From the NCBI GenBank assembly GCA_045654485.1, contig JAZONN010000023.1, positions 23,305 through 87,304 on the forward strand: a DNA stretch of 64,000 nucleotides, written 5' to 3'. Both the position numbers and the translations under genes were made by a program. This document shows positions 8,210 through 45,814 of the stretch, piece by piece. The notes beneath the pieces were generated by a model. That model saw only the letters and a list, made by a program, of their open reading frames with translations, searched no databases and was not told the DNA's origin. Source of the stretch: Candidatus Enterousia sp. Lineage in GTDB: Bacteria > Pseudomonadota > Alphaproteobacteria > Rs-D84. Position 1 is the stretch's first letter; each line of letters begins with the position of its first letter.

Positions 8210-9076
8210 CTAGTCAATGCGTCCGCATGCCGTGTCGTGATATTTGCATAAATCTTTGGCCATGGATTTTTCTGTGTCAAATCCTGATGCGCACTTGTTT
8301 GGCATGTTTTGGGCGCAAACCTGGGCAATACATTTGTCACGTAGTGCGCCGGTTTTACAATCTTCTTTTAAAGAAGCCATCTGATTTTCACGTGCCGTGC
8401 GATATCCAGATACCAATGCATCCAATGCCGCATCAATCGAATCCATTGTCGATTTGCGTGATGCCAATAATTCGGCACGGATAACCGTGCTATGTGCATC
8501 ACACTTTGGTTCAGATAGCAAACAGGTCGAAAATTCACGGTCGAAATCTGTGTCGTCAAAACACTTTTCAAATCCAGAACCGCAACGGGTCGCACCCAAT
8601 AGGCAATTGCGTACCGATGCAGAACATGCCGATGCACTTTGTTCCGAATGCATTTGATTAATCATGTCCGATACACCAGATATAGTATCCGCACCGGCGC
8701 ACGCCGTTTCAATTAATGGATCATATGCTTCTTCTATGTCATTGATGGTGCAGTCCGGCAATTTCTGCAGACAGCGCAATGTCGCCCATGCGTAACGTTC
8801 GCCGGCGTCCGTTGGGGCCGTCTTTAATTCTTTGTCGGATATGTTATATTTCGTTGATGAACCCGCAGATAAAGATTTCATCACGTTTTGGGTCGGTGGT
8901 GTGCCGGCCGCAGATGTCCCGCAATATTGACAGCGGGCAATCGTGTTCGATGACATATTTATCGCACATGCAGAATCAAGACAACGTATTAAGTTTGCGT
9001 GCGAACACTGCGTCGCCGCATTCGCACTATAACCCAGCAATAATGCCGGTATTAAAATCAAAGTTTGTTTTTTCAT
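8210..9076 (-). CDS. Secreted Cys-rich protein, short member of the Cys-rich family (N-module C..RCLDSAC…, CGSGFEKCFDDTDFD module)
   Basis: 288-aa ORF with signal peptide MKKQTLILIPALLLGYSANA; 16 bp upstream of the 532-aa gene on the same strand (operon). Confidence 0.55.
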   Translation of the reverse strand: MKKQTLILIPALLLGYSANAATQCSHANLIRCLDSACAINMSSNTIARCQYCGTSAAGTPPTQNVMKSLSAGSSTKYNISDKELKTAPTDAGERYAWATLRCLQKLPDCTINDIEEAYDPLIETACAGADTISGVSDMINQMHSEQSASACSASVRNCLLGATRCGSGFEKCFDDTDFDREFSTCLLSEPKCDAHSTVIRAELLASRKSTMDSIDAALDALVSGYRTARENQMASLKEDCKTGALRDKCIAQVCAQNMPNKCASGFDTEKSMAKDLCKYHDTACGRID

Positions 9077-9234: not shown

Positions 9235-10041
9235 ATGGCAATTACTTGGAATGCAACAACAAAAAAATGGACTTTGGTTGGTACGTGTAGTGCGGCCGGT
9301 GCGGCTCTGCTTGTTTGGGCAGGTGTTGCAATTGGTAACGCAAATAGCAATGCCAATGAAGCCAAAGGCGTGGCAGGTGCTGCAATGGGGCAGGTGAAAT
9401 CTGTTGAAGGTGCAGTAGAGGCATTAGATGCCGAAGTAGATTTGGTTTATGAAGCGGTTGAACAGGCACAACGTACAGCAGATAATGCGTTGAAAGAAGT
9501 AAAAGTTCATCGTGATTCTACTATTGCGCAGGGTGTGCATCAAGCTGCTAAAAAGCCAGCGGCAAAACCAGTGGCTAAAAAAGAAGAAGCAAAGCCAGCC
9601 GCAAAACCAGTAGCTAAAAAAGAGGAATCAAAACCAGCCGCAAAACCGGCGGCGCAGCCAGTAAAAATGGTCGCAGCTGTTTGTGCGGAGTCTGGTAAAA
9701 CGGTTGTGCAACAATCTGCATCAGAAGCACCAGTTGATGTTAATGTTGACTTGGGCGGCAAAAATACAGGTGCCACAGTCGTCGCAACAGATGTTAGTGT
9801 AGTACAGGGTGAAAAATTAAGCCAAGGTGCAAAGGTTGTGCAACAAATGGCAACAGAGGCACCATCTAATGTGCAGGTGACTGTGTCCGGTGATAACAAA
9901 GGTGTTGTTGCCGTCGGTACAAATGTACACGTTGAACAAACTGTCTTGCCGGATGATTATGTAGAGGTTACTGTTAAAGAATCTTGCACTGTGGTGCTGA
10001 CAGACAAGGCGTACAGACAAATGCGTCGTCGTTGCAGATAA
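9235..10041 (+). CDS. Membrane-anchored hypothetical protein with tandem K/P/A-rich repeats (KPAAKPVAKKEE x2.5)
   Basis: 268-aa ORF, N-terminal hydrophobic helix, coiled region, lysine/proline/alanine repeat, C-terminal domain with 3 Cys. Confidence 0.5.
   Translation: MAITWNATTKKWTLVGTCSAAGAALLVWAGVAIGNANSNANEAKGVAGAAMGQVKSVEGAVEALDAEVDLVYEAVEQAQRTADNALKEVKVHRDSTIAQGVHQAAKKPAAKPVAKKEEAKPAAKPVAKKEESKPAAKPAAQPVKMVAAVCAESGKTVVQQSASEAPVDVNVDLGGKNTGATVVATDVSVVQGEKLSQGAKVVQQMATEAPSNVQVTVSGDNKGVVAVGTNVHVEQTVLPDDYVEVTVKESCTVVLTDKAYRQMRRRCR
9547..9660. repeat. 39-bp tandem repeat x about 2.5 (gcaaaaccagtRgctaaaaaagaRgaaKcaaaRccagcc)
   Basis: Unit 9562-9600 and 9601-9639 differ at 4 positions; partial units on both sides; in-frame. 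Confidence 0.7.
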
Positions 10042-10063: not shown

Positions 10064-10089
10064 CCCACCGATTGGTGGGGTATTTTTTT
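10064..10089 (+). terminator. Intrinsic terminator
   Basis: cccacc-gatt-ggtggg + T7. Confidence 0.6.
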
Positions 10090-10159
10090 GGTTTTTTATG
10101 CTGGACAGAAAAAAGAATCTTGTGCTATGCTGTGTTTGTCATCAGAGAGAGTAGATATA

Positions 10160-13100
10160 ATGAAGTTTATCAGAAGTTTTATTTTTGCTTTGTTTTTTGC
10201 ACCTTTTGCAGCAGGGGCGGCATCCAATGATTTTATGGTTGCGGCACAGTTGTTGGCGGCGGCCAAGGCGGCTGATATTCAACAAGTTCAGGCCTTGGTG
10301 AATAATGGCGCAAATGTTAACTTTGTGGATTCTACGGGGTTGTCGATTGTTTGTACGGCTTTGATGAATAATGATGTGCGTGCAGCACAAATTTTGCAGA
10401 TGTATGGTGCAGATGCATCACAATGTGATCGTCAAATTCGTCAGTATAATAACCGAAATAAGCCCAAGGATACCGGTGGGTTGTTTAGCGGACTGTCGTC
10501 TGCCCAGACCATTAGTTTAGCGGCGGCGGGGGCCGCCGTTGTTGTAGGTGGCTTGTTATTATTAACAGATGTGTTCGATCCTGGTAATGATAACGAATCG
10601 GTGTCGGGTGGTGGAACACGTCCCGGTGGTGGTGGCAGTGACAATAATGCGACCGCCGAGGCATATTTGACTGTGCCGTATAGTCCAGCGTATCTGGGGA
10701 CAGATGGTAAGGTTACAACAAGTAATGAAATATATTTAGAAAATTTGGCCGGTTGGAATCCAGATGCGGGTGGATTAAAGGAAGCCGATTTTAATTTCTT
10801 TAACGATGTTAATGTGCAAAATTATTTGTTGATGATGCATGGGTATTCGGCATTTGCAAATGAATATATGGGTAAAGAAATTTTCCGTGATGAAAAAAAT
10901 CGCAATCCTGTTTTGGTTGGTAACAAGGCCGGTGGTGGTCGGCCGGTTGTTGTTGGGCTGGTTACAAGAAATGGTTTAAATCCGACGGGGTCGGCAGAAC
11001 GTGGTGAAGGTATAGAATATGCAAGTAGCGCATCGGTATCATCGGAAACTTTTCTGGTTGATAAATATTTGAACTATGAAAAACCGGTAAATGGTGTGTT
11101 GGGGCAAGAGGTCATAAGTGCTGTATCTGCATTTGATTTGTCGGGGGCTGGTACGGCTATGAATCCTTTTGCGACGTCATATGATAGTGCATTGGGAAAA
11201 ATTGTTGCGGGTTGGTATGGTGATGGACGTGCCTATGGTGATTTTTTTGGATTTGTACCTTATGGTCGTTTGGGGATATTTAGAACCGGTGGTGGTAAGG
11301 AGTGGGTTAATATAGAAAAATCAACCGATGGGGCTGTTTTGGGAACTGTTGCTGGGGGGGGCGATGTTGCAATTGCGGTTGGTGATAAAATTACATGGAA
11401 TGGGGTGACGTATGATATTTTGTCTGCTTTGACGGATACGGGTGTTGTTCGTCCGCAAATTACAGTTAAGGACACAACATACGATGTTGCAAATCCAACA
11501 AATATGATGATTGGAAAATGTTCGGGTGATGGTTGTACGGGTGAATCGGATATTGCAATCTATGTTGGGGCAGATGGATATTATTACGTAAATACAATGG
11601 GTGGTGATAGTGTTGATGCAGTTTGGACTGTGAAAGATGGTAATTTATATGCACAGAAAGAATTGGTTGATGCGGACTATAAGAATTTCCAGGCATTGTT
11701 TAATGCACGTTCGGTTGATGTGTTGGCAAATGTATCGGTGATTGAACCTTCTCGTAATGTGAATTATTTAACTGTTGCGGATGTTCCGGCGGCATTAAAA
11801 TTGGTAAAGGAAGATGGTACAAATTATACTTTTATTGATTTGATTGATGCGGTATATGATAGGAATGGTACTGACACAACGACACAGGGTGAATATGCGC
11901 ATCGTTTATTTAATGGGTATGGCACGGGTAATCCCATCCTGGTTATGTCGGCGGGCGAATTCGCATTGGGGGTTGGTGATGGTTTGTCATCATCTGTATT
12001 GGATGCGACATTTGAAAATTATGCGCCATTGTTATACGACAATAATTTGCAACATATGTTTATGACGGTTGTTGCGGTTGGGCATACCGGCGGCACAAAA
12101 GATGCGGATTCTATAAATGATTATGGAAATGGTACGGCAACAGAGTTTGGGCCGTTATATCTATCGGCCTGGCGTGATAAAGATGATACCCTTTATATGT
12201 CACGTAAGTGCGGTATTGCGGGGTTGGGGGTTAATGGGATTGACCCATGGTGTTTTGCTGCAGCGGGTGCGACGGGTGAAATGGCGACGGCTGCCGCAGC
12301 GGGGGCTGTTGCGTCATTGAAAGCCGCATTTAGTTATATGACTAATCCACAGATATTTACATTGATGGCTTTGACCGCAGATGGTTATTTGTTGGGTACG
12401 GATGCTTCGGGTAAGGCATTTGATAATGAAACATTGGCGGCCTATTTACAGAATATGTATGCTTTGCCGCCGGAATATTATCCAACAGAATTGTCGGCTG
12501 ATGAATATTTGAAGGCGTTTGCAGAAGTGTATGGTTATGGTTTAATCAATTTGGAACGTGCGATGACGCCGAATAAGAAAATTTATTTCTTTGATGGCAC
12601 AAATATCGTATCGGCAAACGGTAATGCGTATTGGCGTGCGGCAACAAATACTACATTTAAACCGTCGAGCACATTTAATTTGCGTGGTGCAACAATACGT
12701 GCGCCGTTCTATGATATGGTGACAAGTGTTGATGGAAATATGTCTTTGCCACGTGTGTGGGAAAATGAATTTGCGCTGGGTATGGATGGTCGCCGTTCAT
12801 TGTATATGGGTGATGTATTGGGCGAATTAAATACCCGTGTTGAAGACATACCAAAAACACAGATTGGTAATTTGGGTTTTTCTATGTCTTGGTCTGAACG
12901 GGCATACGAAGATAATTTGGGAGGATTGGATTCTTTGGTGTTGGATTATGTGTCTGGCAATTGGGAATTTGGTGCGTCGTATCAAAGATATTTGACGGAT
13001 GGGATGGCTCGTTTTACCCAGACGCATAACTCAATTTTGGGATTAATGTCGAATGCTTTGGTGACGGATGCAAGATACCAAATTGGAAATTGGTCTTTCG

Positions 13101-13804
13101 GTGCAAGTGCATTTTCTGGTGCGGTGACAGATGAAGGGTTGTTGGAATATGATCCGGCGATTTCTAATGCTTATATGCCGGCAAAATTGGGCTTGATGCA
13201 GGGGGCGTCAGCCGATGTTGCATGGGGAAACAATCGCTTTGATTTTGTTGCAACAATTGGTGCAGCGCATGAAACGGGTACCATATTGGGGGCGCAGACG
13301 GATGGTTTGTTAGATATGGGAAATGGTGATACAGCGTATATTGATGTGATGGCAAGATTTGATTTATCTGATAATGTACGATTAACCGGTCGGACGACGT
13401 GGGCGCAGACACGCAGCAAACCAAATGGCATGTTTGTGTTGGGAATGTCAGATATATATTCGAATTCTATGTCTTTGGCGGCAAATGTTGGTTCGTTTGA
13501 ATTTTCTGTGGCGCAACCTTTGGCTATATATGATGGTTCATTGAAATATGCGTATGCAGAATATGATGTTGTTAATATGGGTGGGGGTAAGTATGAATTA
13601 AATGTTCTAGATACCCATGTTGAAGATTTAGATTTGTCTGCAGGACGTCGTGAGTTACGCTTTGCCGGTACGTATCGCCGCAGCTTTGGAGAGTTTACAG
13701 ATGGGGCATTTGGCTTTATATATCGTGTAAATCCAAATAATACCGATGAATTTGGAAATGAAAGTGTGTTTATGTTGAAATTAACACATCGTTTGGGATT
13801 TTAA
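10160..13804 (+). CDS. Large outer-membrane/autotransporter-like protein with N-terminal ankyrin repeats and C-terminal beta-barrel-like domain ending in F
   Basis: Start ATG 10160 after gagagag RBS; signal peptide MKFIRSFIFALFFAPFAAGAAS; two ANK repeats (…LVNNGANVNFVDSTGLSIVCTALMNNDVRAAQIL…); last about 300 aa amphipathic beta-strand pattern ending …FMLKLTHRLGF. Confidence 0.55.
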   Translation: MKFIRSFIFALFFAPFAAGAASNDFMVAAQLLAAAKAADIQQVQALVNNGANVNFVDSTGLSIVCTALMNNDVRAAQILQMYGADASQCDRQIRQYNNRNKPKDTGGLFSGLSSAQTISLAAAGAAVVVGGLLLLTDVFDPGNDNESVSGGGTRPGGGGSDNNATAEAYLTVPYSPAYLGTDGKVTTSNEIYLENLAGWNPDAGGLKEADFNFFNDVNVQNYLLMMHGYSAFANEYMGKEIFRDEKNRNPVLVGNKAGGGRPVVVGLVTRNGLNPTGSAERGEGIEYASSASVSSETFLVDKYLNYEKPVNGVLGQEVISAVSAFDLSGAGTAMNPFATSYDSALGKIVAGWYGDGRAYGDFFGFVPYGRLGIFRTGGGKEWVNIEKSTDGAVLGTVAGGGDVAIAVGDKITWNGVTYDILSALTDTGVVRPQITVKDTTYDVANPTNMMIGKCSGDGCTGESDIAIYVGADGYYYVNTMGGDSVDAVWTVKDGNLYAQKELVDADYKNFQALFNARSVDVLANVSVIEPSRNVNYLTVADVPAALKLVKEDGTNYTFIDLIDAVYDRNGTDTTTQGEYAHRLFNGYGTGNPILVMSAGEFALGVGDGLSSSVLDATFENYAPLLYDNNLQHMFMTVVAVGHTGGTKDADSINDYGNGTATEFGPLYLSAWRDKDDTLYMSRKCGIAGLGVNGIDPWCFAAAGATGEMATAAAAGAVASLKAAFSYMTNPQIFTLMALTADGYLLGTDASGKAFDNETLAAYLQNMYALPPEYYPTELSADEYLKAFAEVYGYGLINLERAMTPNKKIYFFDGTNIVSANGNAYWRAATNTTFKPSSTFNLRGATIRAPFYDMVTSVDGNMSLPRVWENEFALGMDGRRSLYMGDVLGELNTRVEDIPKTQIGNLGFSMSWSERAYEDNLGGLDSLVLDYVSGNWEFGASYQRYLTDGMARFTQTHNSILGLMSNALVTDARYQIGNWSFGASAFSGAVTDEGLLEYDPAISNAYMPAKLGLMQGASADVAWGNNRFDFVATIGAAHETGTILGAQTDGLLDMGNGDTAYIDVMARFDLSDNVRLTGRTTWAQTRSKPNGMFVLGMSDIYSNSMSLAANVGSFEFSVAQPLAIYDGSLKYAYAEYDVVNMGGGKYELNVLDTHVEDLDLSAGRRELRFAGTYRRSFGEFTDGAFGFIYRVNPNNTDEFGNESVFMLKLTHRLGF

Positions 13805-13897: not shown

Positions 13898-14317
13898 ATG
13901 AATTTGTCATGGCAATTTGTTGTGCGGTATGTAAAAAATTTGTTCCCCGATAATGCGCCGGTGGCCATTAGTGATAACCCAGATGCGGATGCTTGTGTTG
14001 TTGCACACGTTTGTTCGGGGGATGTTTATTATATAAATAATCAGATAAATGGCGAAAAATACTGGCAGGTCTTTGTTGCGAATTTAAAGGACGTTGAATT
14101 GGTGCGCTATATTTTGCGTAGTAATGGATTGAAACCAAAATTGTTTCGTGCGGGAATGTTGATGAGTGTTCGTGTTGCAGATACGCAAAACAATCCAAAG
14201 GCACAGCAATTTATGGAAATGGTTTTGAATCATAATATTGATGTGGCGGAACGTGATGCGGTTATGATGCGTGTACAAAATGTCCGACAAAAAATGACTA
14301 AAGCCAAGGTGAAATAA
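13898..14317 (+). CDS. Hypothetical protein
   Basis: ORF with aaaagg RBS; no recognisable motifs. Confidence 0.4.
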   Translation: MNLSWQFVVRYVKNLFPDNAPVAISDNPDADACVVAHVCSGDVYYINNQINGEKYWQVFVANLKDVELVRYILRSNGLKPKLFRAGMLMSVRVADTQNNPKAQQFMEMVLNHNIDVAERDAVMMRVQNVRQKMTKAKVK

Positions 14318-14342
14318 AAATCGGCATTATGCCGATTTTAAT
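14316..14342. terminator. Bidirectional terminator between convergent genes
   Basis: tcggca-ttat-gccga with A-run and T-run flanks. Confidence 0.5.
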
Positions 14343-15042
14343 TTTTAAAATATTTTGATTTTTGTTGTTGTGATACTGTGTACATAGTATCGAATTTGGC
14401 ATCGGCCGCAGATTGCGTTGTTGGGGCATTTGTAGAGGTATAGTTATAATCGGCGCCATTTAATACGATTATATAATCCGGTGAGATATTGGTTCCGCAA
14501 TCCAAGTAATATTTAGACGGGTCATAATATTTGCCATAACATTTACCGTTTTCAACCGCCGCATAACCGTATTCGGCCAATTGGGTACAGGTTGGTTGTG
14601 TGCCATATGTAATTTCGCCATTATCTAAGAATTCGTCAGGGTTATCCAATATGCCCGAACACCATACATTTACGTATTTGCCGTTAAGGGATGCGATTGT
14701 GCCTCCTTCGGCGGTTTTGCGACGTCCAAAGCAGGCGTCGTTGGCGGATAATAGTGTTACATCAAAATCGGGGTTGATGTTTTTGCCGGCTGCGATGTCG
14801 TTGCGTCCCATTGCGACGGGTTCGTCAGATGGTGTTTTAATCGCATCCGGACAGATTAATTTCATGCCCCAGCACTTTGCATTATCGTCCCACATTTGTG
14901 CATCAAATCCGGTACCCATTCCACGATAACAATCAGATGGATTTAATTTGCATACCGTTGGTTGGTCCCACCAAGGCGTTGCGGCGTTTGCGCCACATGT
15001 ATAGAATAGTAATGCGGTAAAGATTGATATATTTTTTTTCAT
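14338..15042 (-). CDS. Secreted Cys/Trp-rich hypothetical protein
   Basis: 234 aa, signal peptide MKKNISIFTALLFYTCGANA, 14 Cys; 57 bp downstream of the 786-aa gene on same strand. Confidence 0.5.
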   Translation of the reverse strand: MKKNISIFTALLFYTCGANAATPWWDQPTVCKLNPSDCYRGMGTGFDAQMWDDNAKCWGMKLICPDAIKTPSDEPVAMGRNDIAAGKNINPDFDVTLLSANDACFGRRKTAEGGTIASLNGKYVNVWCSGILDNPDEFLDNGEITYGTQPTCTQLAEYGYAAVENGKCYGKYYDPSKYYLDCGTNISPDYIIVLNGADYNYTSTNAPTTQSAADAKFDTMYTVSQQQKSKYFKN

Positions 15043-15099: not shown

Positions 15100-17460
15100 T
15101 CATGCGTTGCTGGGTGTTTCTTCTTCTTTTTGTGTGTCTTGTTCGGTTGATGTGTTGTTGTCTGTTGTTGGTGGTGTCTGACAGTATCCCCATGCCGTGT
15201 GTGCAGATGTTTGATCATAGAACAATTTGTACCGTGTTGTGTTGGTTGTGTCTGTTGGTGTGCTAACCCAAATTCCGCCCAAACGTTCACATTCTTTTGA
15301 TAATTCCTTGGCCATTTTTACACGTGTGTCGTCCATTACTTTGTTAATATCTTGCAATACTGTTGCGGGCAGGTTTTTGCCGGATTCGCTTGGGCGGACG
15401 CAGACCTGTAATGCGTATTTTGATAATTTTTGATATAAGCTGCCGATATAATCGTCGCCGCATCTGTTGTTGTTTGGTGCTTGTTGTGTGGCACAATCAC
15501 CTACTGTGATGGCTTCTGGTTTTGCTTTTTCGCCGGCGCATTCATAACAGTCGGGGCATGGTTTGCATGTGTTTCCGTATTCTGGGGTGGCGTTATATTC
15601 ACCCATATAGGACAGGTAATATCCCGGGGCGCACGATGTGTATTTGAATTCGATTTCACATGTATAATCGCCATATTGGGTGTTTGTGTTGGTTGTGCCT
15701 GTATTAATAGGGCCTGATAATTGGCCGGTTTGTGTTTGTAAAATACACCATATGTCTGTTGAATATTGATGTGACCCGGGGGAGTATGTGCGGCACCCAT
15801 ATGGTGATGTGTGTAGTGTGTCGTTGCTGGGGACAGCGCACAAATCTTGGGCATATGCGGTTAAAGCTTCGACGCATTGTTGGCCGATTTGCTGGTCGGT
15901 TATATTGTGCATAGTTGCCAATAATTCGTTTAGACCACCGGGGCCGCCGCCGTATAGATTGCTACATGCGTCTAATTTTTCTTGGCACAGTTGTTCGGAT
16001 AGTTCCAAACGTGCGCCTAATAACAATTTTTCGTCTGTATTTGAGAAGTCCTTTAATGATTGATTTTTTTCGTCATAGCATTTATTTACAACTTCAAGGC
16101 ATTCGTTTTTAACCTGACGAATTCTATCTTGTTGACCTTGATAAATTTCTGTTACGGCTTGGCGCATAAATTCATCCCAAACCATGTCGGATATGTCACG
16201 GCATGTATCCAATCCACGTTTGGCATATATGCGTTTGTCGGATAAGTTTGCAACCAGTAATCGATTGGTTTCATTGGTCAAGATGTCGCCAGATAATGAT
16301 ATTTGATATCCCAATTGATAGAATTCGGGACTGTATATCGGTTCGCCTGTTGTAATATTAAGGTATAATCCGGTGATGTCTAAGCAATGTACATAATTTG
16401 GACCGCATGCCGTGTCGGCGGTTATGTCTTGGCGAACCTGGGCAATGCATTGATGGATGTCGGAAGAATTGTGGTTGTTGTAATTTTCTAATCGTAATCC
16501 CTGTAATTCTTTGCCGGCGATACGGATTGCATTGTTTGCATTATTTTTTTCTTGGTTTAATGAATTTAATAGCAGATTACAATCATTTTCGATATACATT
16601 CCATATGCCGATGTAACCATTGTTTGTATGGCATCTGTTGGGCATTGGCTGATTGCCATCTGGGCGCATTGTGCATGTACAGCGTTGTACAACGCTTCGC
16701 CAGATAGTTCGGCAATATTAACGCCCCCCATCAAACCGGTGGTCGACCATATCGTGTCAATTGTGCCGGCGATGTCAACGGTGCCTTGGGTGGATAATGA
16801 TTGTTTTTTTGTTTTAGATAATATTGCACTTATGCCCGATAATTCAGATGTGGCGGTGGAAGAATCTTTCATAAAAGTTTGCTGATTTTCACCAGCGGTT
16901 CCTTTTATCATCGCATTTACTTCTGCGGGTGACTTATCGACAACAGTTAATTGTAGATCCCGAAAATCTTGCAATTGGTTGGATGTATTGCCCAATGCAC
17001 GCTCACGATTTTGGATTTCATAAATTTTAGATGAACATGTGCATCTACGGTATTTGGTGTCTAATGTGCCACAAAACTGATCCATGCATGTAAAGTATGC
17101 GTCACGACATGTGTTATAGTCCGCATTAAATGTCTCAGAAGGTTGGGCGAATACATTTATTGTGGCACGTGCGGTTGCTCTTTTTTGTGTTGGGGTGCCG
17201 TTGTGTGCAGATGTGGTTCGGGTGGCGGTGCCACGTGCGGTTGTTGCCGAACGAGGTTTGGTCGCTGTGCGTGCATTTGTTGAGTTGCGAAATGTTTGGG
17301 TTATTGTGCGTGGTGTTGTCGAACGTGCATTTGTCGCCGTGCGTGCAACGGTTGTAGATTGTGTGGCAGGACGTGAGATGGTTTTTGCATTACGTTCAGC
17401 GGCGTTGACACTGCCAACACCGGCGATTAACGCCATAATGAAAAATAGTATCCTATCCAT
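15100..17460 (-). CDS. Giant secreted Cys-rich protein, family member (N-module YNTCRDAYFTCMDQFCGTLDTKYRRCTCSS; R/T-rich linker)
   Basis: 786 aa; signal peptide; linker TARTATNARSTTPRT…; LYNAVHAQCAQMAISQC… module aligned with paralogues. Confidence 0.65.
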   Translation of the reverse strand: MDRILFFIMALIAGVGSVNAAERNAKTISRPATQSTTVARTATNARSTTPRTITQTFRNSTNARTATKPRSATTARGTATRTTSAHNGTPTQKRATARATINVFAQPSETFNADYNTCRDAYFTCMDQFCGTLDTKYRRCTCSSKIYEIQNRERALGNTSNQLQDFRDLQLTVVDKSPAEVNAMIKGTAGENQQTFMKDSSTATSELSGISAILSKTKKQSLSTQGTVDIAGTIDTIWSTTGLMGGVNIAELSGEALYNAVHAQCAQMAISQCPTDAIQTMVTSAYGMYIENDCNLLLNSLNQEKNNANNAIRIAGKELQGLRLENYNNHNSSDIHQCIAQVRQDITADTACGPNYVHCLDITGLYLNITTGEPIYSPEFYQLGYQISLSGDILTNETNRLLVANLSDKRIYAKRGLDTCRDISDMVWDEFMRQAVTEIYQGQQDRIRQVKNECLEVVNKCYDEKNQSLKDFSNTDEKLLLGARLELSEQLCQEKLDACSNLYGGGPGGLNELLATMHNITDQQIGQQCVEALTAYAQDLCAVPSNDTLHTSPYGCRTYSPGSHQYSTDIWCILQTQTGQLSGPINTGTTNTNTQYGDYTCEIEFKYTSCAPGYYLSYMGEYNATPEYGNTCKPCPDCYECAGEKAKPEAITVGDCATQQAPNNNRCGDDYIGSLYQKLSKYALQVCVRPSESGKNLPATVLQDINKVMDDTRVKMAKELSKECERLGGIWVSTPTDTTNTTRYKLFYDQTSAHTAWGYCQTPPTTDNNTSTEQDTQKEEETPSNA

Positions 17461-17504
17461 AACTTATGGTTATTATATTATCAAAATATTGGGATTATAA
17501 CAAA

Positions 17505-17527
17505 TAAAAAACCGCACGATGTGCGGA
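17505..17527 (-). terminator. Intrinsic terminator after infA
   Basis: ccgcac-gat-gtgcgg hairpin with U-run on minus strand. Confidence 0.55.
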
Positions 17528-17531
17528 TTTT

Positions 17532-17777
17532 TTAATTTGCGTTTTCTGTCGATGGGCGATTGCGTTCAACAAACGTAATGCGGCCTTTGTCCAAATCGTA
17601 TGGGGTCATTTCAACACGAACACGTTCGCCAACATTGACCCAGATGCGTGCTTTACGCATTTTGCCACAAACAGTTGCCAGAATTTCGTGTCCATTTTCC
17701 AATTTTACACGGAACATAGTGTTTGGTAACTTATCTTCTACGGTGCCGGTAAAAACAATAACGTCGTCTTTTGCCAT
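17532..17777 (-). CDS. infA: Translation initiation factor IF-1 (with short C-terminal extension)
   Basis: [70 protein letters not shown] matches IF-1 S1-like fold. Confidence 0.92.
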
Positions 17778-17847
17778 TTATTATCTCTTTTTTGCTGTGG
17801 ACAATTATATGATATTTGTCGAAAAAAATCAAGTGGTTTTTATGTGC

Positions 17848-17876
17848 TTGCACTAAAGTCAAAGTTTTGATAAAAT
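17848..17876 (+). promoter_or_regulatory. Sigma70-type promoter TTGCAC-17-TAAAAT for the 765/827-aa operon
   Basis: read directly; about 34 nt upstream of ATG 17910 with RBS aggtggtg. Confidence 0.35.
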
Positions 17877-17909
17877 AGGTCCTAAGGAAATTGTATGTAG
17901 GTGGTGCAC

Positions 17910-20198
17910 ATGATATTAAGAATTTTTGCAACTGTTTTGGCTTTGGTTCCAGGTGTGGCGTTTTCCGCTGTGCGTGGTGAAGATGCGCGTGTAAGTGTTC
18001 AGCGTGTGTCTATGGCGGGGGTTCGTGGTCCCAATATTTCTAAGACATTGCATACGTCGTCTGGTGTTGATGATGTTGTGAAAGACGATGTATCTGGTGA
18101 TAATTCAGATGCGGGTGATGATGTCGGTGGTGATTCGGGCGGTGGAAATACCGATGGTGGTGATTCTAGTGGCGGTAATGATTCTGGTAACGATAATGAA
18201 ACTGGGGATGGTTCCGGTGTTGTTGGTGGTTTGTGTGATCGTGAAATGTATCGAACTTGCATGGATGAATTTTGTTTGATGGATGAAAGTGATGGTGGAC
18301 GTTGTTCTTGTTCGGATAATATCTATGCGGCAGATGCGATTGTTGCAGAGATTCAATCGATTCAATCCAAAGCGGATAAAATGTACACCGAACAGGTTGA
18401 ACGTGAAAAGTTGGGTGCAAACGCTGATTATATTTTTGAGGCAAATGAAACAGAAGAAGTGGTAGCTCAGAAAAAAAGTTTTAGTTCCAGCGATTTGTTG
18501 GCTGATATTTTTGCAACAGATGTTTTGACGGATGAAGAAGAAGTTGTGACACAGTCGCCAGATTTGTCTGCAGATGATATGATTGGTGATGTGTTGTATA
18601 ATAGTGCATATGAATATTGTTCGTCGTCTTATTTGGGGGCGTGTACATCTGCGGTTCGTAATGCGGAAACTATGTTGTATTCTCGTTCGATTACGGCGGA
18701 TTGTAAGGCGTATGATTCTTATTTGGCAGATCAAAAGCGTACAGCCGAAGCCAATGTAAAGACGGCCGAGGCGGCGGTTCGTGCTGCACGTTTGTCTGTG
18801 TTCGGTTCGACAAATAAGTACAATCGTGGTGAATGCTTGTTGGCGTATCGTTCGTGTATCGCAGATAAAGGTGGCTGCGGGACGCATTTTGAAAATTGTT
18901 TGAGTGATTCTTTATTGTCACGTCGTGCAAATGCATGTGAAGATATCTTGAATCAATGTGTGGCAGTTCGTGCCGATGTTGAAAAAGATTGGAAAGAAGA
19001 AAAAGAAATGGTGTTGAATGATGCTGCAAAATTTGCATCACGTAATGCACGTCAGATGTGTTTGGCAAATATGCAGGCCTGTTTAGAAGATAATTGTTCG
19101 ATTGCGACAAATTCTGATTGTTTGGGTAATGTTGATGTTGCGATGAAAATCTGTCCGGTTAGTGAAATTTGTGTTGTTCAATTGCCTGGTACATCAGATG
19201 CGGTAAAAATTAGCGGATTATGGGGTGGGGCATCCGAAATAGAGTTTGAAAATACATTAAAAGTGCCAATTCAAAATAAATTGAAATACCTGCGTACGAA
19301 ATTCTGTCAAAATGATGTTTCAAAATGTTTGCAGGAAAAATGTGGTGCGGACTTTACAGCGCCGGAATGTTTGGGCAAGAAATCATCGGCTTTGGTTGCA
19401 ATGTGTCCACAAAATTCAATCTTGTCTTGTGCAGGGGTTAGTGGTTCTGACTTTGAATTGTTGATTAGTTCTGCGACATTGAAAATGGACTATCAAATTA
19501 TGCAGGGTTGTATAAATCATTTTGGTGAACAATTGGGGCGTGTTTGTGGTACGGATATGTCTTGTTTACCATCTGATGATATTGTTATGGGGATGTCTGA
19601 AATGCCAGAAGACATTGTGGCTGCTCGTAAAGAATTGATTAAAAGAACACAGAAAAGTGTTGAATCGTTCTTTAAGGATTTTGAAAAGGATAAGACGATA
19701 GAGGCCTGTGCGTCTTTGGATGGGGCTTTGGGTGACAAAGTATTTATGAGTGCACGTAAGGTTGCAGAAATTGGTGCAGAAAATCGTGCGTTGCGTCAAT
19801 TAGAGGATAAAATTGCAGAACTGTCACGTAAACAGGATTTGGCCAAAGCCGAAGCAAATTGCTATGCAATGTATGCTGTTGAAACACCGGATGAATCGGA
19901 AAAGAATTATAGCTATATCCGTAGTGTAGTGTTTGAGCCGGATTTGCGCAATTGTCATGTATGCCGTATGCAACAGGTTTGTGAAGAAGGTGGTGAATCT
20001 AAATGGACGTCGGCATTAAAGTCGGCTGCGGGCGGTTTGACAGCGGGTGCATCGGCGGGCACTATGATTTCTCCGGGGTGGGGGACCGCAATTGGTGGTG
20101 TCGTTACCGCGGTAGGTGCCGGTATAGTCGGGGCGCAGGCCGGTGGAAAAGAGGATTTCTGTCAAGAAATCGAAAGTTGTGAAGACGTAAATATGTAA
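17910..20198 (+). CDS. Giant secreted Cys-rich protein, family member (D/G/S-rich acidic linker; N-module LCDREMYRTCMDEFCLMDESDGGRCSCSD)
   Basis: about 762 aa from ATG 17910; signal peptide MILRIFATVLALVPGVAFSA; about 45 Cys; C-terminal Gly-zipper-like hydrophobic segment. Confidence 0.65.
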   Translation: MILRIFATVLALVPGVAFSAVRGEDARVSVQRVSMAGVRGPNISKTLHTSSGVDDVVKDDVSGDNSDAGDDVGGDSGGGNTDGGDSSGGNDSGNDNETGDGSGVVGGLCDREMYRTCMDEFCLMDESDGGRCSCSDNIYAADAIVAEIQSIQSKADKMYTEQVEREKLGANADYIFEANETEEVVAQKKSFSSSDLLADIFATDVLTDEEEVVTQSPDLSADDMIGDVLYNSAYEYCSSSYLGACTSAVRNAETMLYSRSITADCKAYDSYLADQKRTAEANVKTAEAAVRAARLSVFGSTNKYNRGECLLAYRSCIADKGGCGTHFENCLSDSLLSRRANACEDILNQCVAVRADVEKDWKEEKEMVLNDAAKFASRNARQMCLANMQACLEDNCSIATNSDCLGNVDVAMKICPVSEICVVQLPGTSDAVKISGLWGGASEIEFENTLKVPIQNKLKYLRTKFCQNDVSKCLQEKCGADFTAPECLGKKSSALVAMCPQNSILSCAGVSGSDFELLISSATLKMDYQIMQGCINHFGEQLGRVCGTDMSCLPSDDIVMGMSEMPEDIVAARKELIKRTQKSVESFFKDFEKDKTIEACASLDGALGDKVFMSARKVAEIGAENRALRQLEDKIAELSRKQDLAKAEANCYAMYAVETPDESEKNYSYIRSVVFEPDLRNCHVCRMQQVCEEGGESKWTSALKSAAGGLTAGASAGTMISPGWGTAIGGVVTAVGAGIVGAQAGGKEDFCQEIESCEDVNM

Positions 20199-20220
20199 TT
20201 TGTAGTAATAGAGAGAGAAT

Positions 20221-22704
20221 ATGCGTAAGAATAGTTTTTTGTTTGTGTGTTTGTGTTGTGCACTGGGGTTTCTCCCAGTGCATAATGCGTTTTCGGCCAC
20301 GCCAAAGAAGGCGGTAAAGCAATCTGCAATTCAAAAAGGAACATCGGTTCGTGTGAAAAGCGAAGCCGTCGGTATTTATGATGAAGATTGTTATAGCGCA
20401 TATTATGGATGTATGGATCAGTTTTGTATTTCAGATAATGAAAGCGGTGGTAGTTGTATTTGTAGCGATGCGTATGCCGGTTATGAGGCGCAGTTAAATG
20501 CAATCAAGGAACAGTTGATTGAAGCAGAACGCATTTCAACGGTCGAGGTTGAAAAAGTAAAGGCAGGTGCCGATGCTGATATTATTTTTACCGGACAAAG
20601 ACAGTATGATAAAAAGGGAAATCTTTTAAGTTTAGATGAAGTAGAAGGTAAAAAATCTGTTGGATTATTGGCTTTGTGGGATGATGCCGTCGAAGAGGAA
20701 GAGGGAGACGAAGATTACGATTCCATTTTCTATGGTGATGATTTGGATGGTTTGACCGGTAATGCTTTGCATAGTGCAGCCCAAGAATTATGTGTTGCGC
20801 AGTTGCCAGATAAATGTGAAGGTGATGTCAGTTTGTTGGCAAGTATGTATTCACGACAGATTGTATCTGACTGCAAGGGTTTGGAAAATAGTTTGCTTCA
20901 AAAACAGGCGACCGCTGATTTGGAAATGTCAAAGGCTGAATCGGCTGTGCGTGCCGCTTTACAGGAAAGTTTAAGCGAATCCAACAAATACACTTTGGGT
21001 GAGTGTATGGTTGAATTCAAAAAATGTATGCGTGGGGCGGATGCATGCGGTACCGATTGGGAACATTGTGTTGGTCAGGTTGCCAGTGAAAATATGCAAA
21101 AATCTTCTTTGCGTGGTAAATCGTATGGTTCAAAGTCGGCATATAATATTACCGAATCTACGATGGAGACATTAGAGGCAAAACGACCAATTTGTGAACG
21201 TGTTCTGTCCAGTTGTGTTGCCGTGCGTGATAATGTGTGGCCGTCGTTCTTAAAGGAAGTGGCACCAACAATTCAATTGGCCGAATCACACATTGAATCG
21301 CGTTTCCGTCAAAGTTGTTTAACGGATATTTCAAATTGTATACATACCGCATGTAAAGATGATATTGCCGGAAAAGGTGTTGCGACAATGGATTCGTGTT
21401 TGGCATATCCGGAAATGGCACGCAGTTTCTGTAAAGTTGAATTGGAACCATGCGAAAAAATGGAACCATTAATTTGGAACTATGTGACCGATAAATTGGC
21501 GGCTATGCGTGTGGATGCATGTACGCAAGAGGTCAAAGATTGTTTTACACATGAATCCAGATGTGGGGAAAATTTCCAGAATTGTATCGGTATTGATTTT
21601 GAACATATCCATGATATGTGTCCGGTTGACAGTTTGGTTGTCTGTAAACAGGGAAATCAGGATTTCAATTTGGATGATTTAGACAAAATGTTGATGGGGC
21701 TGTATTTGAATATCGATACAACCTTGGCGGACCAATGTCAGGAAATTGTTGATAATAAAATGATGGAGATTTGTGGCAGTACAACAGATTGTAACAAATT
21801 TGCATCCGATGATACGATTGGTACCGGTTCTTTGCGTTCACAAAAAGATGGTATCGTGTATCGTTTGACGGGGATGATATCATTTGGTTCTATTCAGGTT
21901 GGTAATGCCAGTGACTATGACCCAAAATCCAGTATTTCAAATCAATTAAAGCCCGGCGAAATTGGCGTGGCAGAATATCTGAAAAAGATTAAAGAGGTAA
22001 ATTCAGATGTGCCAAACCATGAAGGTATTATTTCGGCGATTGAAGAAGAATTGAATAATATCGCGGGTACGATTAATCGTACGATTGAAATGATAGAGCA
22101 GGATCAAAAAATTCAGCACTGTATCCATGGCCGTAATTTAGAGCAGGTTACAGGTGATAAAAAGGATGTTACCACGGGACGTTTCCCAAATCTGTTGAAT
22201 CAAATAAAGATGCAGATTGCGGTTGCGGCTTTGCGTCAGGCCCAAGATAACTATAATGCCAAATGGAACGAAATGTTGGCGGCGGCAAACCATGATGCGT
22301 CTGCGGACGTGGCGCAGTATATGTGTCAAAAAATGGCAGAAAATGCCGCCACCACTTTGACCACTCAAACAAATGGTTTGACACCTCCGTATGCCATCAG
22401 TTATGAAGTTGGGTCGGGATTAAATGTTAATGATTTAACCATTGGTGGACATTCTGTGACCGATTTGGGGCAGACCACTTATAAAAATGATGGCTATCTG
22501 GGGAAATCCAGTGGTACATTTGGGGCTGGTACCAAAGAAACCACGGCGACATTTAATCGTGAAGCCAGAGTTTGTCATTTGTGCACTACGATTATTACCC
22601 AGTCGTGTAAAACAACGGGCAGTAAATCTTGGTTCCATAATAACAGAAATACGTCTTGTACAACTGCGGAACCAATCCAGAAGTGTGAAGATATACCAAT
22701 GTAA
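20221..22704 (+). CDS. Giant secreted Cys-rich protein, family member (N-module EDCYSAYYGCMDQFCISDNESGGSCICSD)
   Basis: 827 aa; 22 bp after the preceding paralogue (co-transcribed); RBS agagagag. Confidence 0.65.
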   Translation: MRKNSFLFVCLCCALGFLPVHNAFSATPKKAVKQSAIQKGTSVRVKSEAVGIYDEDCYSAYYGCMDQFCISDNESGGSCICSDAYAGYEAQLNAIKEQLIEAERISTVEVEKVKAGADADIIFTGQRQYDKKGNLLSLDEVEGKKSVGLLALWDDAVEEEEGDEDYDSIFYGDDLDGLTGNALHSAAQELCVAQLPDKCEGDVSLLASMYSRQIVSDCKGLENSLLQKQATADLEMSKAESAVRAALQESLSESNKYTLGECMVEFKKCMRGADACGTDWEHCVGQVASENMQKSSLRGKSYGSKSAYNITESTMETLEAKRPICERVLSSCVAVRDNVWPSFLKEVAPTIQLAESHIESRFRQSCLTDISNCIHTACKDDIAGKGVATMDSCLAYPEMARSFCKVELEPCEKMEPLIWNYVTDKLAAMRVDACTQEVKDCFTHESRCGENFQNCIGIDFEHIHDMCPVDSLVVCKQGNQDFNLDDLDKMLMGLYLNIDTTLADQCQEIVDNKMMEICGSTTDCNKFASDDTIGTGSLRSQKDGIVYRLTGMISFGSIQVGNASDYDPKSSISNQLKPGEIGVAEYLKKIKEVNSDVPNHEGIISAIEEELNNIAGTINRTIEMIEQDQKIQHCIHGRNLEQVTGDKKDVTTGRFPNLLNQIKMQIAVAALRQAQDNYNAKWNEMLAAANHDASADVAQYMCQKMAENAATTLTTQTNGLTPPYAISYEVGSGLNVNDLTIGGHSVTDLGQTTYKNDGYLGKSSGTFGAGTKETTATFNREARVCHLCTTIITQSCKTTGSKSWFHNNRNTSCTTAEPIQKCEDIPM

Positions 22705-22808: not shown

Positions 22809-23183
22809 ATGAAGAAAATTTCAATATTTTCGATTGTTGGTGCTTTGATGGCAACTGCGGCATCTGCAGAATTTGTAGAGGCGGTATCTGTCACAACAGG
22901 GCCGGGTGGTTTTATAGAAAATGAAAATGTCGTTGTTTCTGTTAAACAGGCCAAAGAAATGCGTGATGAAGTGCCGGTTGTTGTCGAAGGTTTTATCATA
23001 AAACGTTTGGGCGATGAAGAATATTTGTTCGAAGATATGTCAGATTCCATTGTTGTGGAAATTGATGATGACGATTGGCGTGGTCAAAATATCACACCAA
23101 CTGACAAGGTTAGATTGCGTGGTGATGTAGATAAAGGTTTGTTTACAACCGAAATCGAAGTTGACTATGTAGAAAAAATTTAA
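22809..23183 (+). CDS. Periplasmic BOF (YgiW/YdeI, OB-fold) family protein
   Basis: 124 aa, signal peptide, …VVVEGFIIKRLGDEEYLFEDMSDSIVVEIDDDDWRGQNITPTDKVRLRGDVDKGLFTTEIEVDYVEKI typical of BOF family; aaaggag RBS. Confidence 0.6.
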   Translation: MKKISIFSIVGALMATAASAEFVEAVSVTTGPGGFIENENVVVSVKQAKEMRDEVPVVVEGFIIKRLGDEEYLFEDMSDSIVVEIDDDDWRGQNITPTDKVRLRGDVDKGLFTTEIEVDYVEKI

Positions 23184-23185
23184 CA

Positions 23186-23211
23186 TAAACCGCCATTTGG
23201 CGGTTTTTTTA
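23186..23211 (+). terminator. Intrinsic terminator
   Basis: ccgcc-atttg-gcgg + T7. Confidence 0.5.
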
Positions 23212-23897: not shown

Positions 23898-23973
23898 AAA
23901 TGTGTAATTATTTCTTGCACTTTATTTGGGGCTTTGCTATTGTTTGTTCGTTCAACATACAAAGGAGAAAATA

Positions 23974-24798
23974 ATGACTTGGACAATCTTGGTATTGGTA
24001 TTGGCTGTCGCTTTGTTTATGTTTGGTGGCGTTATGTTCAAACAGGATGCTAAAAAAACATCTGCAGGTGCGAAGTATGCTAAAAAGGCAGTTAAATTGG
24101 TTTCTGTCTTGTTGATTGCGGGCTGCGTTTGCCGTCTGTACACACCATATTATCTGACATCTGTTAATCCATTAATCTTGCAAGAAATGGTTGATGGTAT
24201 GCAGGCAAAACAAAACGAAGAAAAAAATAAAGCTATCCGTAAATATGTTCGCAACAATGCGGATGTTATGATGGCTGATGCACCAATTTTGGGTAATCCA
24301 GAAGCAAAGAAAACAATCTATGTTTGGACTGCGGCTTCTTGTGGTTATTGCCGTCGCGTACACGGTGAATTGGAAAGCGTTTTGGCAAATCGTGATGACG
24401 TGAAAGTTGTTATTAAAAACTTCTCTATCCATGGTGTAAATTCTGATGCACCTGCACGTGCAATGATTGCTGCAAAAATCCAAGACAATGCAAAAGCCGC
24501 AAAATTGGTTGATATGATCATGACACGTGAATATCGTCCAACAGAAAACATCCAAGATCCAAAGAAATTGGGTGCTGCAATTGAAAAGAAAGTTTTGGAA
24601 TTTGCAAAAGAAGCAGATTTGGACGTAGAACAATTGAAGAAAGATATGAACGGCGAAGTTGTTGCACGTGAAATGGCAAACGTTCGTGATTTGGCACAAA
24701 AGTTTGAAATCTCAGGTACACCTTTCTTGATTATCAATGAAGAAGCGTTCCCAGGTGCTATCCCAGCTGCACATATCAATGAAGCGTTGGATAAATAA
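23974..24798 (+). CDS. DsbA-family thiol:disulfide oxidoreductase with N-terminal membrane anchor
   Basis: aaaggag RBS 8 nt upstream; TM helix; thioredoxin fold with CGYC active site (…WTAASCGYCRRVHGEL…). Confidence 0.7.
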   Translation: MTWTILVLVLAVALFMFGGVMFKQDAKKTSAGAKYAKKAVKLVSVLLIAGCVCRLYTPYYLTSVNPLILQEMVDGMQAKQNEEKNKAIRKYVRNNADVMMADAPILGNPEAKKTIYVWTAASCGYCRRVHGELESVLANRDDVKVVIKNFSIHGVNSDAPARAMIAAKIQDNAKAAKLVDMIMTREYRPTENIQDPKKLGAAIEKKVLEFAKEADLDVEQLKKDMNGEVVAREMANVRDLAQKFEISGTPFLIINEEAFPGAIPAAHINEALDK

Positions 24799-38135: not shown

Positions 38136-38333
38136 TGTTATAATATGTGTGTTGTCGGGTGTTTCGACAATGGGGTGTGAGAACCTCTGCCACAGTGTCC
38201 GAATCGTTCGGATAAAACCTTCTGACCATTGGTCAGGAGGGTCGCTAAATATATTGAATAAGTGACACGATTCTGTGGATTGTTCTCAACCTCCTGGCCA
38301 CCTGAATTTGGTGGTTTTTTGTTTGGAGGTATT
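38136..38333 (+). promoter_or_regulatory. Extended -10 promoter (TGTTATAAT) and about 180-nt structured 5' leader ending in a terminator-like hairpin (ccacc-tgaattt-ggtgg + T6, 38298-38320) 14 nt before the start codon
   Basis: TGnTATAAT at 38136-38144; hairpins ccgaa-tcg-ttcgg, ctgacc-att-ggtcag; the segment gagaacctctg could pair alternatively with ggttgagaaca region (antiterminator-like). Confidence 0.3.
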
Positions 38334-42560: not shown

Positions 42561-42637
42561 TGTGTTGATTTTATCATAAATCCTGACTTGAATCAAAATA
42601 GTTTATTTGTTAGAATAAAAAAAAAGAGAGAAAGAAT

Positions 42638-45734: not shown

Positions 45735-45814
45735 AGTTGAGGTGCTTTTTCTGCTTTACATGGATTGCACAAAAATCGTATAATAATAGCATATTAATAA
45801 AGAAGGAAAATTAT

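Follow-up and report, generated by a model that had tools for sequence, protein, structure and literature searches.

A 64,000-nucleotide stretch of DNA from Candidatus Enterousia sp. (contig JAZONN010000023.1, forward-strand positions 23,305 to 87,304), referred to throughout as the window, encodes four large exported proteins which, judged from their sequences, are a real, previously undescribed family of Cys-rich proteins with a conserved Cys scaffold. Each type is designated by the length of its open reading frame (ORF) in amino acids (aa). Three of the genes lie in the interval 15100-22704, on which an initial annotation made from the letters alone had concentrated, and the positions of the three ORFs, of infA between them and of the 22-bp gap separating the 765 and 827 genes are all as claimed there. 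The features of the array, together with the fourth family gene, are:

14338..15042, minus strand: gene for a 234-aa secreted Cys-containing protein (p234), directly downstream of the 786-type gene
15100..17460, minus strand: 786-type gene, 786 aa (ORF call)
17512..17526, no strand assigned: terminator-like bidirectional hairpin CCGCACGATGTGCGG with T-runs on both sides, between infA and the 786 gene
17532..17777, minus strand: infA (IF-1; PF01176), between the 786 and 765 genes
17901..20198, plus strand: 765-type gene, ORF of 765 aa; likely start ATG 17910 (17910..20198, 762 aa), from the identical database protein P0271
20221..22704, plus strand: 827-type gene, 827 aa (ORF call)
22809..23183, plus strand: BOF gene (YgiW-like periplasmic OB-fold), probably the final gene of a 765-827-BOF operon
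38262..41348, plus strand: 1028-type gene, beyond the flagged interval; likely start 38334 (~1004 aa)

The first 3 codons of the 765-aa ORF are absent from the identical database protein, which begins at the fourth codon, and the real product is therefore probably 762 aa long. The 786 gene, annotated as divergent to the 765-827 pair, does lie on the opposite strand, with infA and the terminator-like hairpin in between; infA is outside the family and was found inside the array in every genome examined. As the hairpin separates infA from the 786 gene, the latter probably has its own promoter. Consensus scans, from which all terminator and operon calls derive and which do not imply functional evidence, placed a strong terminator after BOF (23187-23206) and a further one after p234 (14317-14339), and none in the 22-bp gap or between the 827 and BOF genes. 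Judged by this arrangement, 765, 827 and BOF seem to share a transcript, and the likely transcription units are 765-827-BOF and 786-p234. In most genomes the 827-type gene has BOF downstream of it, and p234, which has no detectable homology to the family, always has the 786-type gene immediately upstream and is probably co-transcribed with it.

The resemblance among the proteins had been proposed to be positional rather than compositional, and alignment bears this out. BLASTP with composition-based statistics related the 827- to the 765-aa protein (E=9e-40, 26% identity over 502 aa) and the 786-aa protein to both (E=6e-16 with 827, E=8e-12 with 765); the 1028-type matched the 827-aa protein at 33% identity (E=9e-107). 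Smith-Waterman scores exceeded those of full shuffles by 21-61 standard deviations (SD) and those of shuffles with every Cys position fixed by 19-31 SD, and with all Cys masked they still lay 7-23 SD above shuffles. Since significance survives both the fixing and the masking of Cys, the similarity is one of position. The opposing explanation, that Cys-rich low-complexity sequence creates a family only as an artefact of composition or that the ORFs are not genes, can draw on the strong GC skew, which yields long spurious antisense ORFs in the window (e.g., 18105..18887); set against the Cys-masked alignments, which stay significant at z 7-85, the hundreds of full-length orthologues with a ratio of non-synonymous to synonymous substitution rates (dN/dS) of ~0.1 and the confident AlphaFold2 (AF2) models, its probability is negligible. 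It is refuted by the Cys-masked Smith-Waterman significance together with the dN/dS of ~0.1.

The skew itself, which reaches 0.35, has a positive sign in essentially all 2-kb bins whatever the gene strand, which places the window on one replichore and accounts for long spurious antisense ORFs within real genes (18105..18887, 260 aa; 17162..17500). The second of these apparently led the gene caller to trim the 786 orthologue on contig L081 to 661 aa. That 661-aa call, in a strain 99.3% identical to the window, was considered as a linker polymorphism and dismissed as a gene-caller artefact, the ORF being intact.

Similarity is organised around an N-terminal module (N-module), C-x6/7-C-M-D-x-F-C-x9-C-x-C-S, that is invariant in the family; it had been described as nearly invariant, with the first spacing written C-x5-6-C. 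The pattern C[MLIV]D.FC has four matches in the window, one in each of the four family proteins and nowhere else. Across the four paralogues 17 Cys columns are invariant, and the modules described earlier as 'LYNSA'/'SDC' and KYxxGxC are confirmed as colinear blocks with invariant columns ('G..L......C.......C....Y...I..DC' and 'NKY..G.C'). The repeat first written 'C..KCG.DF..C' is likewise real, and is better expressed as a four-Cys motif, C-x6-C-x(4,6)-CG-x2-[FWY]-x(2,4)-C, which the window contains 9 times, where shuffled sequences would yield 0.0015, and in family proteins only: the 827-, 765-, 1028- and 532-aa proteins have 2 matches each and the 288-aa protein has 1. The units of the 786-aa protein are degenerate, the second Cys being missing from the first (CIAQVRQDITADTACGPNYVHC). 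A profile of the core recovered the four full members at E<=1e-171 in every case, and two weak partial relatives:

8210..9076, minus strand: 288-aa secreted mini-relative (E=2.5e-5), with an N-module-like 'CLDSAC...CQYC' and one four-Cys unit
6595..8193, minus strand: 532-aa secreted distant relative (E=1.7e-3), with two four-Cys units and a Gly-zipper-like segment

The same profile found no detectable relation of the 234- and 885-aa Cys-rich neighbours to the family, so that the seven ORFs grouped by the initial annotation reduce to four full members and these two. Its description of the proteins as giant, with 40-50 Cys each, also needs revision: their actual size is 760-1030 aa, and the counts for the three proteins of the array are 31 (786), 36 (765) and 39 (827, of which 36 in the mature protein). 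The definition proposed for the family in Enterousia/Rs-D84 comprises a signal peptide, the N-module, a colinear helical core and two four-Cys units, all of which were found.

The family is best read as specific to one lineage, the order Rs-D84 / Candidatus Enterousia. A scan of species-representative genomes for the N-module pattern gave at least 574 confirmed stretches, of which the best 80 form the locus set used here; these 80 all belong to gut metagenome-assembled genomes (MAGs) labelled Candidatus Enterousia, Alphaproteobacteria or 'Rickettsiales', and a closed chromosome of 958,618 bp is among them. Searching 1.84 billion 50%-identity representatives with the profile returned 896 sequences at E<=1e-3, 708 at E<=1e-10 and 427 at E<=1e-30, and all cluster representatives that have a name are entered as 'hypothetical protein' from MAGs of Alphaproteobacteria or Enterousia. 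When the 827-, 765- and 1028-types served as queries in word-indexed searches, each retrieved hundreds of full-length orthologues, none of which carries a Pfam domain. The focal proteins matched no family in Pfam-A (hmmscan, E<=1), NCBIfam, PHROGs or PADLOC, a PDB sequence search with 4- and 72-sequence profiles gave no match, and the family was not found described in the literature searched. The annotation had recognised no characterised family in these proteins, setting aside Pmp/OmcB, Sel1/Hcp and VSP, and this assessment stands against Pfam, NCBIfam and, for sequence and fold alike, the PDB. Phage and plasmid collections also gave no match in tblastn, and an origin from a mobile element was rejected on that basis.

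The host gives the family its context. Enterousia genomes (GTDB order Rs-D84) are below 1 Mb and are reported to have no respiratory chain, no standard transporters and no amino-acid, nucleotide or lipid synthesis; an obligate dependence on other cells, as symbionts or parasites, is predicted for these bacteria, and 'hypothetical membrane-bound proteins' have been speculated to mediate their cell-cell contact (PMC12306168). The window encodes LptB, LptC, a SurA-like chaperone and Pal-like and EnvC-like proteins, which indicates a diderm cell with lipopolysaccharide and peptidoglycan, and a DsbA-like oxidoreductase, which indicates an oxidising envelope compartment. That a genome of less than 1 Mb keeps more than 10 kb for this family suggests an important role.

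Export by Sec through a cleavable signal peptide is supported by the protein sequences. The 786-, 765- and 827-aa proteins all carry signal peptides of type I with AxA-type cleavage sites, as had been noted, and no conserved lipobox Cys (L-[AS]-[GA]-C) appeared when N-termini were compared among the window proteins and some 20 orthologues. Beyond the signal peptide the types differ. The 786-type continues with a basic, disordered R/T/A/S-rich linker (aa ~22-115), the N-module, the helical Cys core and a variable C-terminal half with an acidic low-complexity tail; the protein has neither a hydrophobic anchor nor a CEDIxM ending. In the 765-type a conserved 'ARVxVQRVSMAGVRGPN' precedes a hypervariable acidic D/G/S/N linker, the N-module, a helical core with 36 Cys, an uncharged Gly-zipper hairpin of 37-42 aa and a 'FCQEIESCEDVNM' tail; the hairpin retains its 37-42 uncharged residues in 120/120 orthologues, lies 36 residues from the end, with 'FCQEIESCEDINM' after it. 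In place of a variable linker the 827-type has a brief, conserved lead-in (its orthologues share 'KQSAIQKGTxVRxKT' ahead of an N-module that begins at residues 53-61), an all-alpha body (aa 55-707) and a polar, beta-rich, Cys-containing C-terminal domain (aa 727-826) with the final residues CEDIPM; no hydrophobic segment was found in this type, the maximum Kyte-Doolittle value being 0.6-1.1. The 1028-type combines a basic A/T/S/R linker with AR[AS]AT repeats, the core common to the family and, in its orthologues, a conserved hydrophobic region in which the longest uncharged run is 20-129 residues (median 52). Its hairpin, uncharged and 43-129 aa long, typically reads 'PPK.AFGK', transmembrane (TM) segment 1, 'PFTGG', TM segment 2, with Kyte-Doolittle values up to 3.3, and is followed by a Cys mini-domain with a terminal 'C.D.QF'.

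Two features first attributed to all three proteins of the array are consequently confined to some of the types. A hypervariable linker is present in the 786- and 765-types and is replaced in the 827-type by the conserved lead-in, and the Gly-zipper or hydrophobic hairpin near the C-terminus is restricted to the 765-type and the 1028-type, the 786- and 827-types having none. The CEDIxM-type tail was seen on family members only in 1.47 Mb of Enterousia sequence and gave no sign of being a general sorting signal, a weak test because the sample consists only of the neighbourhoods of family genes.

The fold is predicted from the AF2 models to be an elongated, almost entirely alpha-helical body with a small C-terminal domain. 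The model of the 827-aa protein, built on a 72-sequence alignment (mean predicted local distance difference test, pLDDT, 75; predicted template-modelling score, pTM, 0.46), is nearly all helical from residue 55 to 707, with helices of 35-58 residues and two disordered loops, and residues 727-826 form a beta-rich domain. For the 765-aa protein the helical core was recovered with pLDDT up to 94 and the linker is disordered. No fold relative of the family models was found in the PDB; the 827 C-terminal beta domain gave only weak Foldseek matches to secretin or levivirus-coat sheets (E 0.36-1.3). The body is probably a new disulfide-rich all-alpha fold.

An elongated helical architecture joined to a glycine-zipper hydrophobic hairpin, in an adjacent gene pair of which one partner only has the hydrophobic element, recalls two-component alpha-helical membrane-inserting or pore-forming systems of the YaxAB/XaxAB or ClyA kind, which an organism without standard transporters might use to take metabolites from its partner cell; the 765- and 1028-types, with the hairpin-less 827- and 786-types as partners, would insert into that cell's membrane. 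The models show no fold similarity to the helical bundle with hydrophobic head or foot of ClyA, YaxAB or XaxAB. Moreover, 18 disulfides would be expected to hinder the large refolding of an alpha-pore, a way through the outer membrane is lacking, and conservation on a par with recO and dsbA suits a structural role better than a toxin. We consider a pore very improbable.

How the genes evolve bears most directly on their role. The array p234(-), 786(-), infA(-), 765(+), 827(+), usually then BOF, is kept in essentially all of the 80 loci with enough flank, and the four paralogue types are ancient, single-copy orthologous groups kept by every genome, with a gene order that holds in about 80 genomes at species level. 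Identity to the window across loci is about 50% (786), 52% (765) and 60% (827), compared with about 92% for infA, 64% for dsbA and 60% for recO. Nei-Gojobori dN/dS against the closest species (L001), approximate because dS is near saturation, is 0.11 (786), 0.10 (765) and 0.12 (827), equal to or below the neighbours (0.09 for p234, 0.19 for a 1238-aa protein and 0.20 for p159). Within the species, two strains 99.3-99.5% identical to the window account for 46 synonymous and 8 non-synonymous changes in total (9/2 in 786, 16/0 in 765, 21/6 in 827) and for no linker indels relative to it. Exactly 36 Cys are present from the N-module onward in 68/68 765-type and 75/75 827-type orthologues (143/143), and the Cys count is even in 113/135 family representatives. 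The dN/dS of about 0.1, the invariant 36 Cys and the low polymorphism together indicate that purifying selection on the scaffold is strong. These data do not support the multigene family shaped by diversifying selection that had been proposed; diversifying selection holds at most for the linkers and part of the 786-type.

As a separate observation, the region 21120..22020 of the 827 gene (codons ~300-600) has a proportion of synonymous differences (pS) from L001 of 0.02-0.18, compared with 0.44-0.75 for the gene's remainder and its neighbours, which suggests a recent recombination tract common to both lineages.

By sequence comparison, only two kinds of region evolve rapidly: the disordered linkers that three types (786, 765 and 1028) carry near the N-terminus, and the 786-type C-terminal half. 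The 786-type linker consists of basic R/T/A/S repeats that change freely in length and sequence between species; in the 765-type a conserved 'ARVGVQRVSMAGVRGPN' is followed by an acidic linker rich in G/N/S/P, which lets the N-module start anywhere between residues 89 and 126; the disordered 1028-type linker is variable as well. The 786-type, variable in its C-terminal half, has 24-43 Cys, an odd number in 53/64 orthologues, and diverse C-terminal extensions. Such a distribution could mean that the proteins are surface adhesins or a variable coat, in which the linkers and the 786-type C-terminal half bind the partner cell or host glycans under diversifying selection. The hypervariability of the linkers between species, the changing Cys number, diverse extensions and local dN/dS of 0.82 in the 786-type, and a host that is predicted to be obligately partner-dependent and has many unexplained membrane proteins all agree with this, and the basic N-terminal region resembles the heparin-binding N-terminus of chlamydial OmcB (PMC2229832). 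It is opposed by an overall dN/dS of about 0.1 with linkers invariant within the species, by a copy number and synteny so fixed that neither expansion nor contraction is seen, and by the lack of an autotransporter, TpsA or other outer-membrane translocation domain and of a lipobox; the 1028-type hairpin, with Kyte-Doolittle values up to 3.3, would be an inner-membrane stop-transfer signal, and low-complexity linkers drift fast whether exposed or not. On balance we regard the adhesin or coat as rather unlikely.

The cysteines invite another explanation, a disulfide cross-linked envelope lattice resembling the outer membrane complex of Chlamydia (COMC), in which intermolecular disulfides, joining the proteins to each other or to further Cys-rich proteins of the envelope, would provide osmotic and mechanical rigidity. 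Many secreted Cys-rich proteins cluster nearby (the 885-, 577-, 273- and 234-aa ORFs), the Cys count of the 786-type, odd in most orthologues as given above, could leave one thiol free to bond with another molecule, the window contains a DsbA-like gene, and in Chlamydia OmcA, OmcB and MOMP are oxidised alongside DsbA (PMC6752827). The invariant even number of 36 Cys in the 765- and 827-types nevertheless fits intramolecular pairing, the retained peptidoglycan shape genes remove the need for a lattice of protein in place of a wall, and neither sequence nor fold similarity to OmcB was found, all of which makes the lattice improbable. The oxidoreductase in question is encoded as follows:

23926..24798, plus strand: DsbA-like thiol oxidoreductase, possibly membrane-anchored, with a Thioredoxin_4/DSBA match and a CGYC active site

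Co-occurrence with this gene, which had been suggested as a test, is upheld as regards its presence in these genomes; elsewhere the recO-dsbA pair stands at variable distance and orientation. Functional coupling through adjacency was therefore set aside, the pair moving rather than keeping synteny. The DsbA-like protein has N-terminal hydrophobic segments, by which it may be membrane-tethered; the host is reported to have no respiratory chains (PMC12306168), which bears on how the enzyme is re-oxidised.

The interpretation that we favour, at about even confidence, is that the family forms an extracytoplasmic scaffold which is specific to the lineage and depends on DsbA. It would serve constitutively as a structural or tethering frame for the envelope, in a bacterium from which most other functions have disappeared, and not as a variable antigen. 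In favour of this are export by Sec, a Cys number that is even and invariant, the DsbA-like oxidase, the long helical bodies, the division into two anchored and two soluble types, the constancy of copy number and gene order, the purifying selection and the more than 10 kb kept in so small a genome. The DsbA-like enzyme is assumed to oxidise the family proteins, and the body of each would be rigidified by ~18 intramolecular disulfide bonds, in keeping with an even Cys number, 36, that never varies in the 765- and 827-types and suits pairing entirely within the molecule. That the hydrophobic hairpins are conserved speaks for a location at a membrane, to which the proteins would be anchored, possibly in the periplasm. 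The tail behind the hairpin contains conserved Cys, as does the large N-terminal domain, for which the simplest topology would be a two-pass hairpin with both ends non-cytoplasmic. A segment as hydrophobic as the 1028-type hairpin would normally arrest in the inner membrane as a Sec stop-transfer sequence. The 765- and 1028-types would be anchored by their C-terminal hairpin, most simply in the inner membrane, with large domain and tail kept on the same non-cytoplasmic side, and the soluble 827- and 786-types would probably be held through association with the anchored ones. The linkers, basic in the 786- and 1028-types and acidic in the 765-type, would lie at the membrane-distal end, where they could contact peptidoglycan, the outer membrane or extracellular material. 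An envelope location, as the initial annotation had it, is in this sense plausible.

Several points weigh against the scaffold. The choice of periplasm over surface, the membrane that receives the hairpin and the binding partners are all inferred, a hetero-complex of the 765- and 827-types would follow from operon structure alone, and disulfide pairing is deduced from Cys numbers. In the 765 model the last 100 residues, including the Gly-zipper hairpin, have pLDDT <50, and with pTM of 0.37-0.46 the arrangement of domains in the AF2 models is uncertain. Both the variable N-terminal linkers and a 75-codon patch of the 786 gene (aa 601-675) with dN/dS 0.82 would also fit an exposed role facing the host or partner.

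A more ambitious version of the scaffold, which we hold to be distinctly unlikely, would have the four paralogues form an unprecedented disulfide-rigidified helical envelope structure specific to Rs-D84, Gly-zipper-anchored and serving as a tether or conduit for attachment to, and metabolites from, the partner cell. If true, it would be the partner-contact structure of a sub-1-Mb, transporter-poor gut bacterium, with a fold and an architecture that have no solved relative.

Other genes of the window merit brief description. A 1238-aa exported protein (10088..13804, plus strand), conserved upstream of the array in several genomes, has weak ankyrin-repeat and subtilase (S8) matches and a C-terminus (...LKLTHRLGF) typical of outer-membrane beta-barrels, and may be an autotransporter-like protease. 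The 885-aa exported protein (3907..6564, minus strand) comprises CarboxypepD_reg, Cys repeats of EGF-like type, segments resembling a Gly-zipper and, at its C-terminus, an OmpA/peptidoglycan-binding domain; the 885-, 532- and 288-aa trio recurs beside the 1028-type gene in genome L083. An enlarged 577-aa Pal-like lipoprotein homologue (45737..47470, plus strand) with a CP.C run (CPECADCPTCPECATC) and the C-terminus CGEYGCQ is preceded by the gene for a 273-aa secreted Cys-containing protein (44913..45734, plus strand), and the pair adjoins lptB/lptC in the window and in L084. A VirB11-like ATPase (41601..42596, minus strand) scored 148 bits, below the NCBIfam cutoff of 250. No other type IV secretion system gene was recognised among the neighbouring window ORFs examined, and a link of the 1028-type gene to such a system through this ATPase was rejected, the adjacency being absent in other genomes. 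The window also holds a 268-aa ORF (9235..10041, plus strand) with an N-terminal hydrophobic segment, a Lys/Ala/Pro-rich repeat AAKPVAKKEE[AS]KPAAKP and no family match, and a full-length DUF4301 protein (34418..35845, minus strand; E=3e-182), kept in a very small genome.

Our analysis has importance for the biology of Enterousia and the wider Rs-D84, which are widespread in human, livestock and wild-animal guts. The family occupies more than 1% of a genome below 1 Mb, has been kept by every species examined, and combines an invariant 36-Cys scaffold with the lack of a match to known families or solved folds. It is therefore a good contender for an envelope component that defines the lineage, and it offers targets for antibodies, imaging coupled to fluorescence in situ hybridisation, and structural biology. 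It also raises the question of how an anaerobe without a respiratory chain sustains extensive oxidative protein folding. At the same time it cautions that a Cys-rich protein with a variable linker need not be an antigenically variable adhesin.

Comparison with known systems places the family among recognised kinds of protein while keeping it apart from each. No match was obtained to the OMP6/OmcB and polymorphic membrane protein repeat models (Pfam-A hmmscan at E<=1 for three proteins, and NCBIfam), to the glycine-zipper Pfam models (full proteins at E<=1, isolated C-terminal segments at E<=10) or to a Sel1 profile with tandem ~36-residue repeats. The Giardia VSP features (CXXC, VSP profile, TM segment with CRGKA tail) were absent, again without a Pfam match, the Cys spacing here being C-x6-C and CG-x2-F-x2-C and the tail CEDIxM. 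Neither a beta-barrel translocator nor a two-partner secretion domain of autotransporter, two-partner or trimeric autotransporter systems was found with Pfam and NCBIfam; the 827 C-terminal beta domain is ~100 aa long, polar and Cys-containing, with a maximum hydrophobicity of 0.6-1.1.

OmcB has a fold class other than all-alpha and cross-links intermolecularly. The Enterousia proteins differ from OmcB/OmcA in their predicted all-alpha fold, in even and invariant Cys numbers that suggest intramolecular staples, and in comprising four fixed paralogues, two with hairpin anchors. They share with OmcB/OmcA the character of exported Cys-rich envelope proteins in a host-dependent, reduced-genome bacterium with a DsbA-containing compartment (PMC6752827), and in OmcB, too, a conserved body is adjoined by a basic N-terminal region (PMC6752827, PMC2229832). 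With the Sel1-like-repeat proteins (Helicobacter Hcp, Legionella EnhC) they have in common export, an alpha-helical build with disulfide-bridged helix pairs, and repeated short Cys helix-turn units. As a working analogy, TolA domain II and Braun lipoprotein Lpp are likewise elongated and helical, with one end anchored in a membrane and the distal end meeting another layer, although there is no homology, TolA and Lpp have no disulfides, and the family, whose signal peptide is cleaved, uses a C-terminal hairpin as its anchor rather than an N-terminal TM helix or a lipid. The small-residue, GxxxG-rich hairpin of the 765-type, and similar segments in the 532- and 885-aa neighbours, resemble the glycine-zipper proteins (SlyB/Pcp, Rickettsia 17-kDa antigen, YiaD-type); those groups consist of small lipoproteins, whereas here the zipper lies inside the C-terminal domain of a 760-aa non-lipoprotein. 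Trypanosome VSG and proteins of the haptoglobin-haemoglobin receptor type, helical and disulfide-containing parasite coat proteins, can be listed as near kin in kind. The family is new at the level of sequence, and probably of fold too, and in biological kind it resembles what is already known from the COMC and from Sel1-type Hcp/EnhC.

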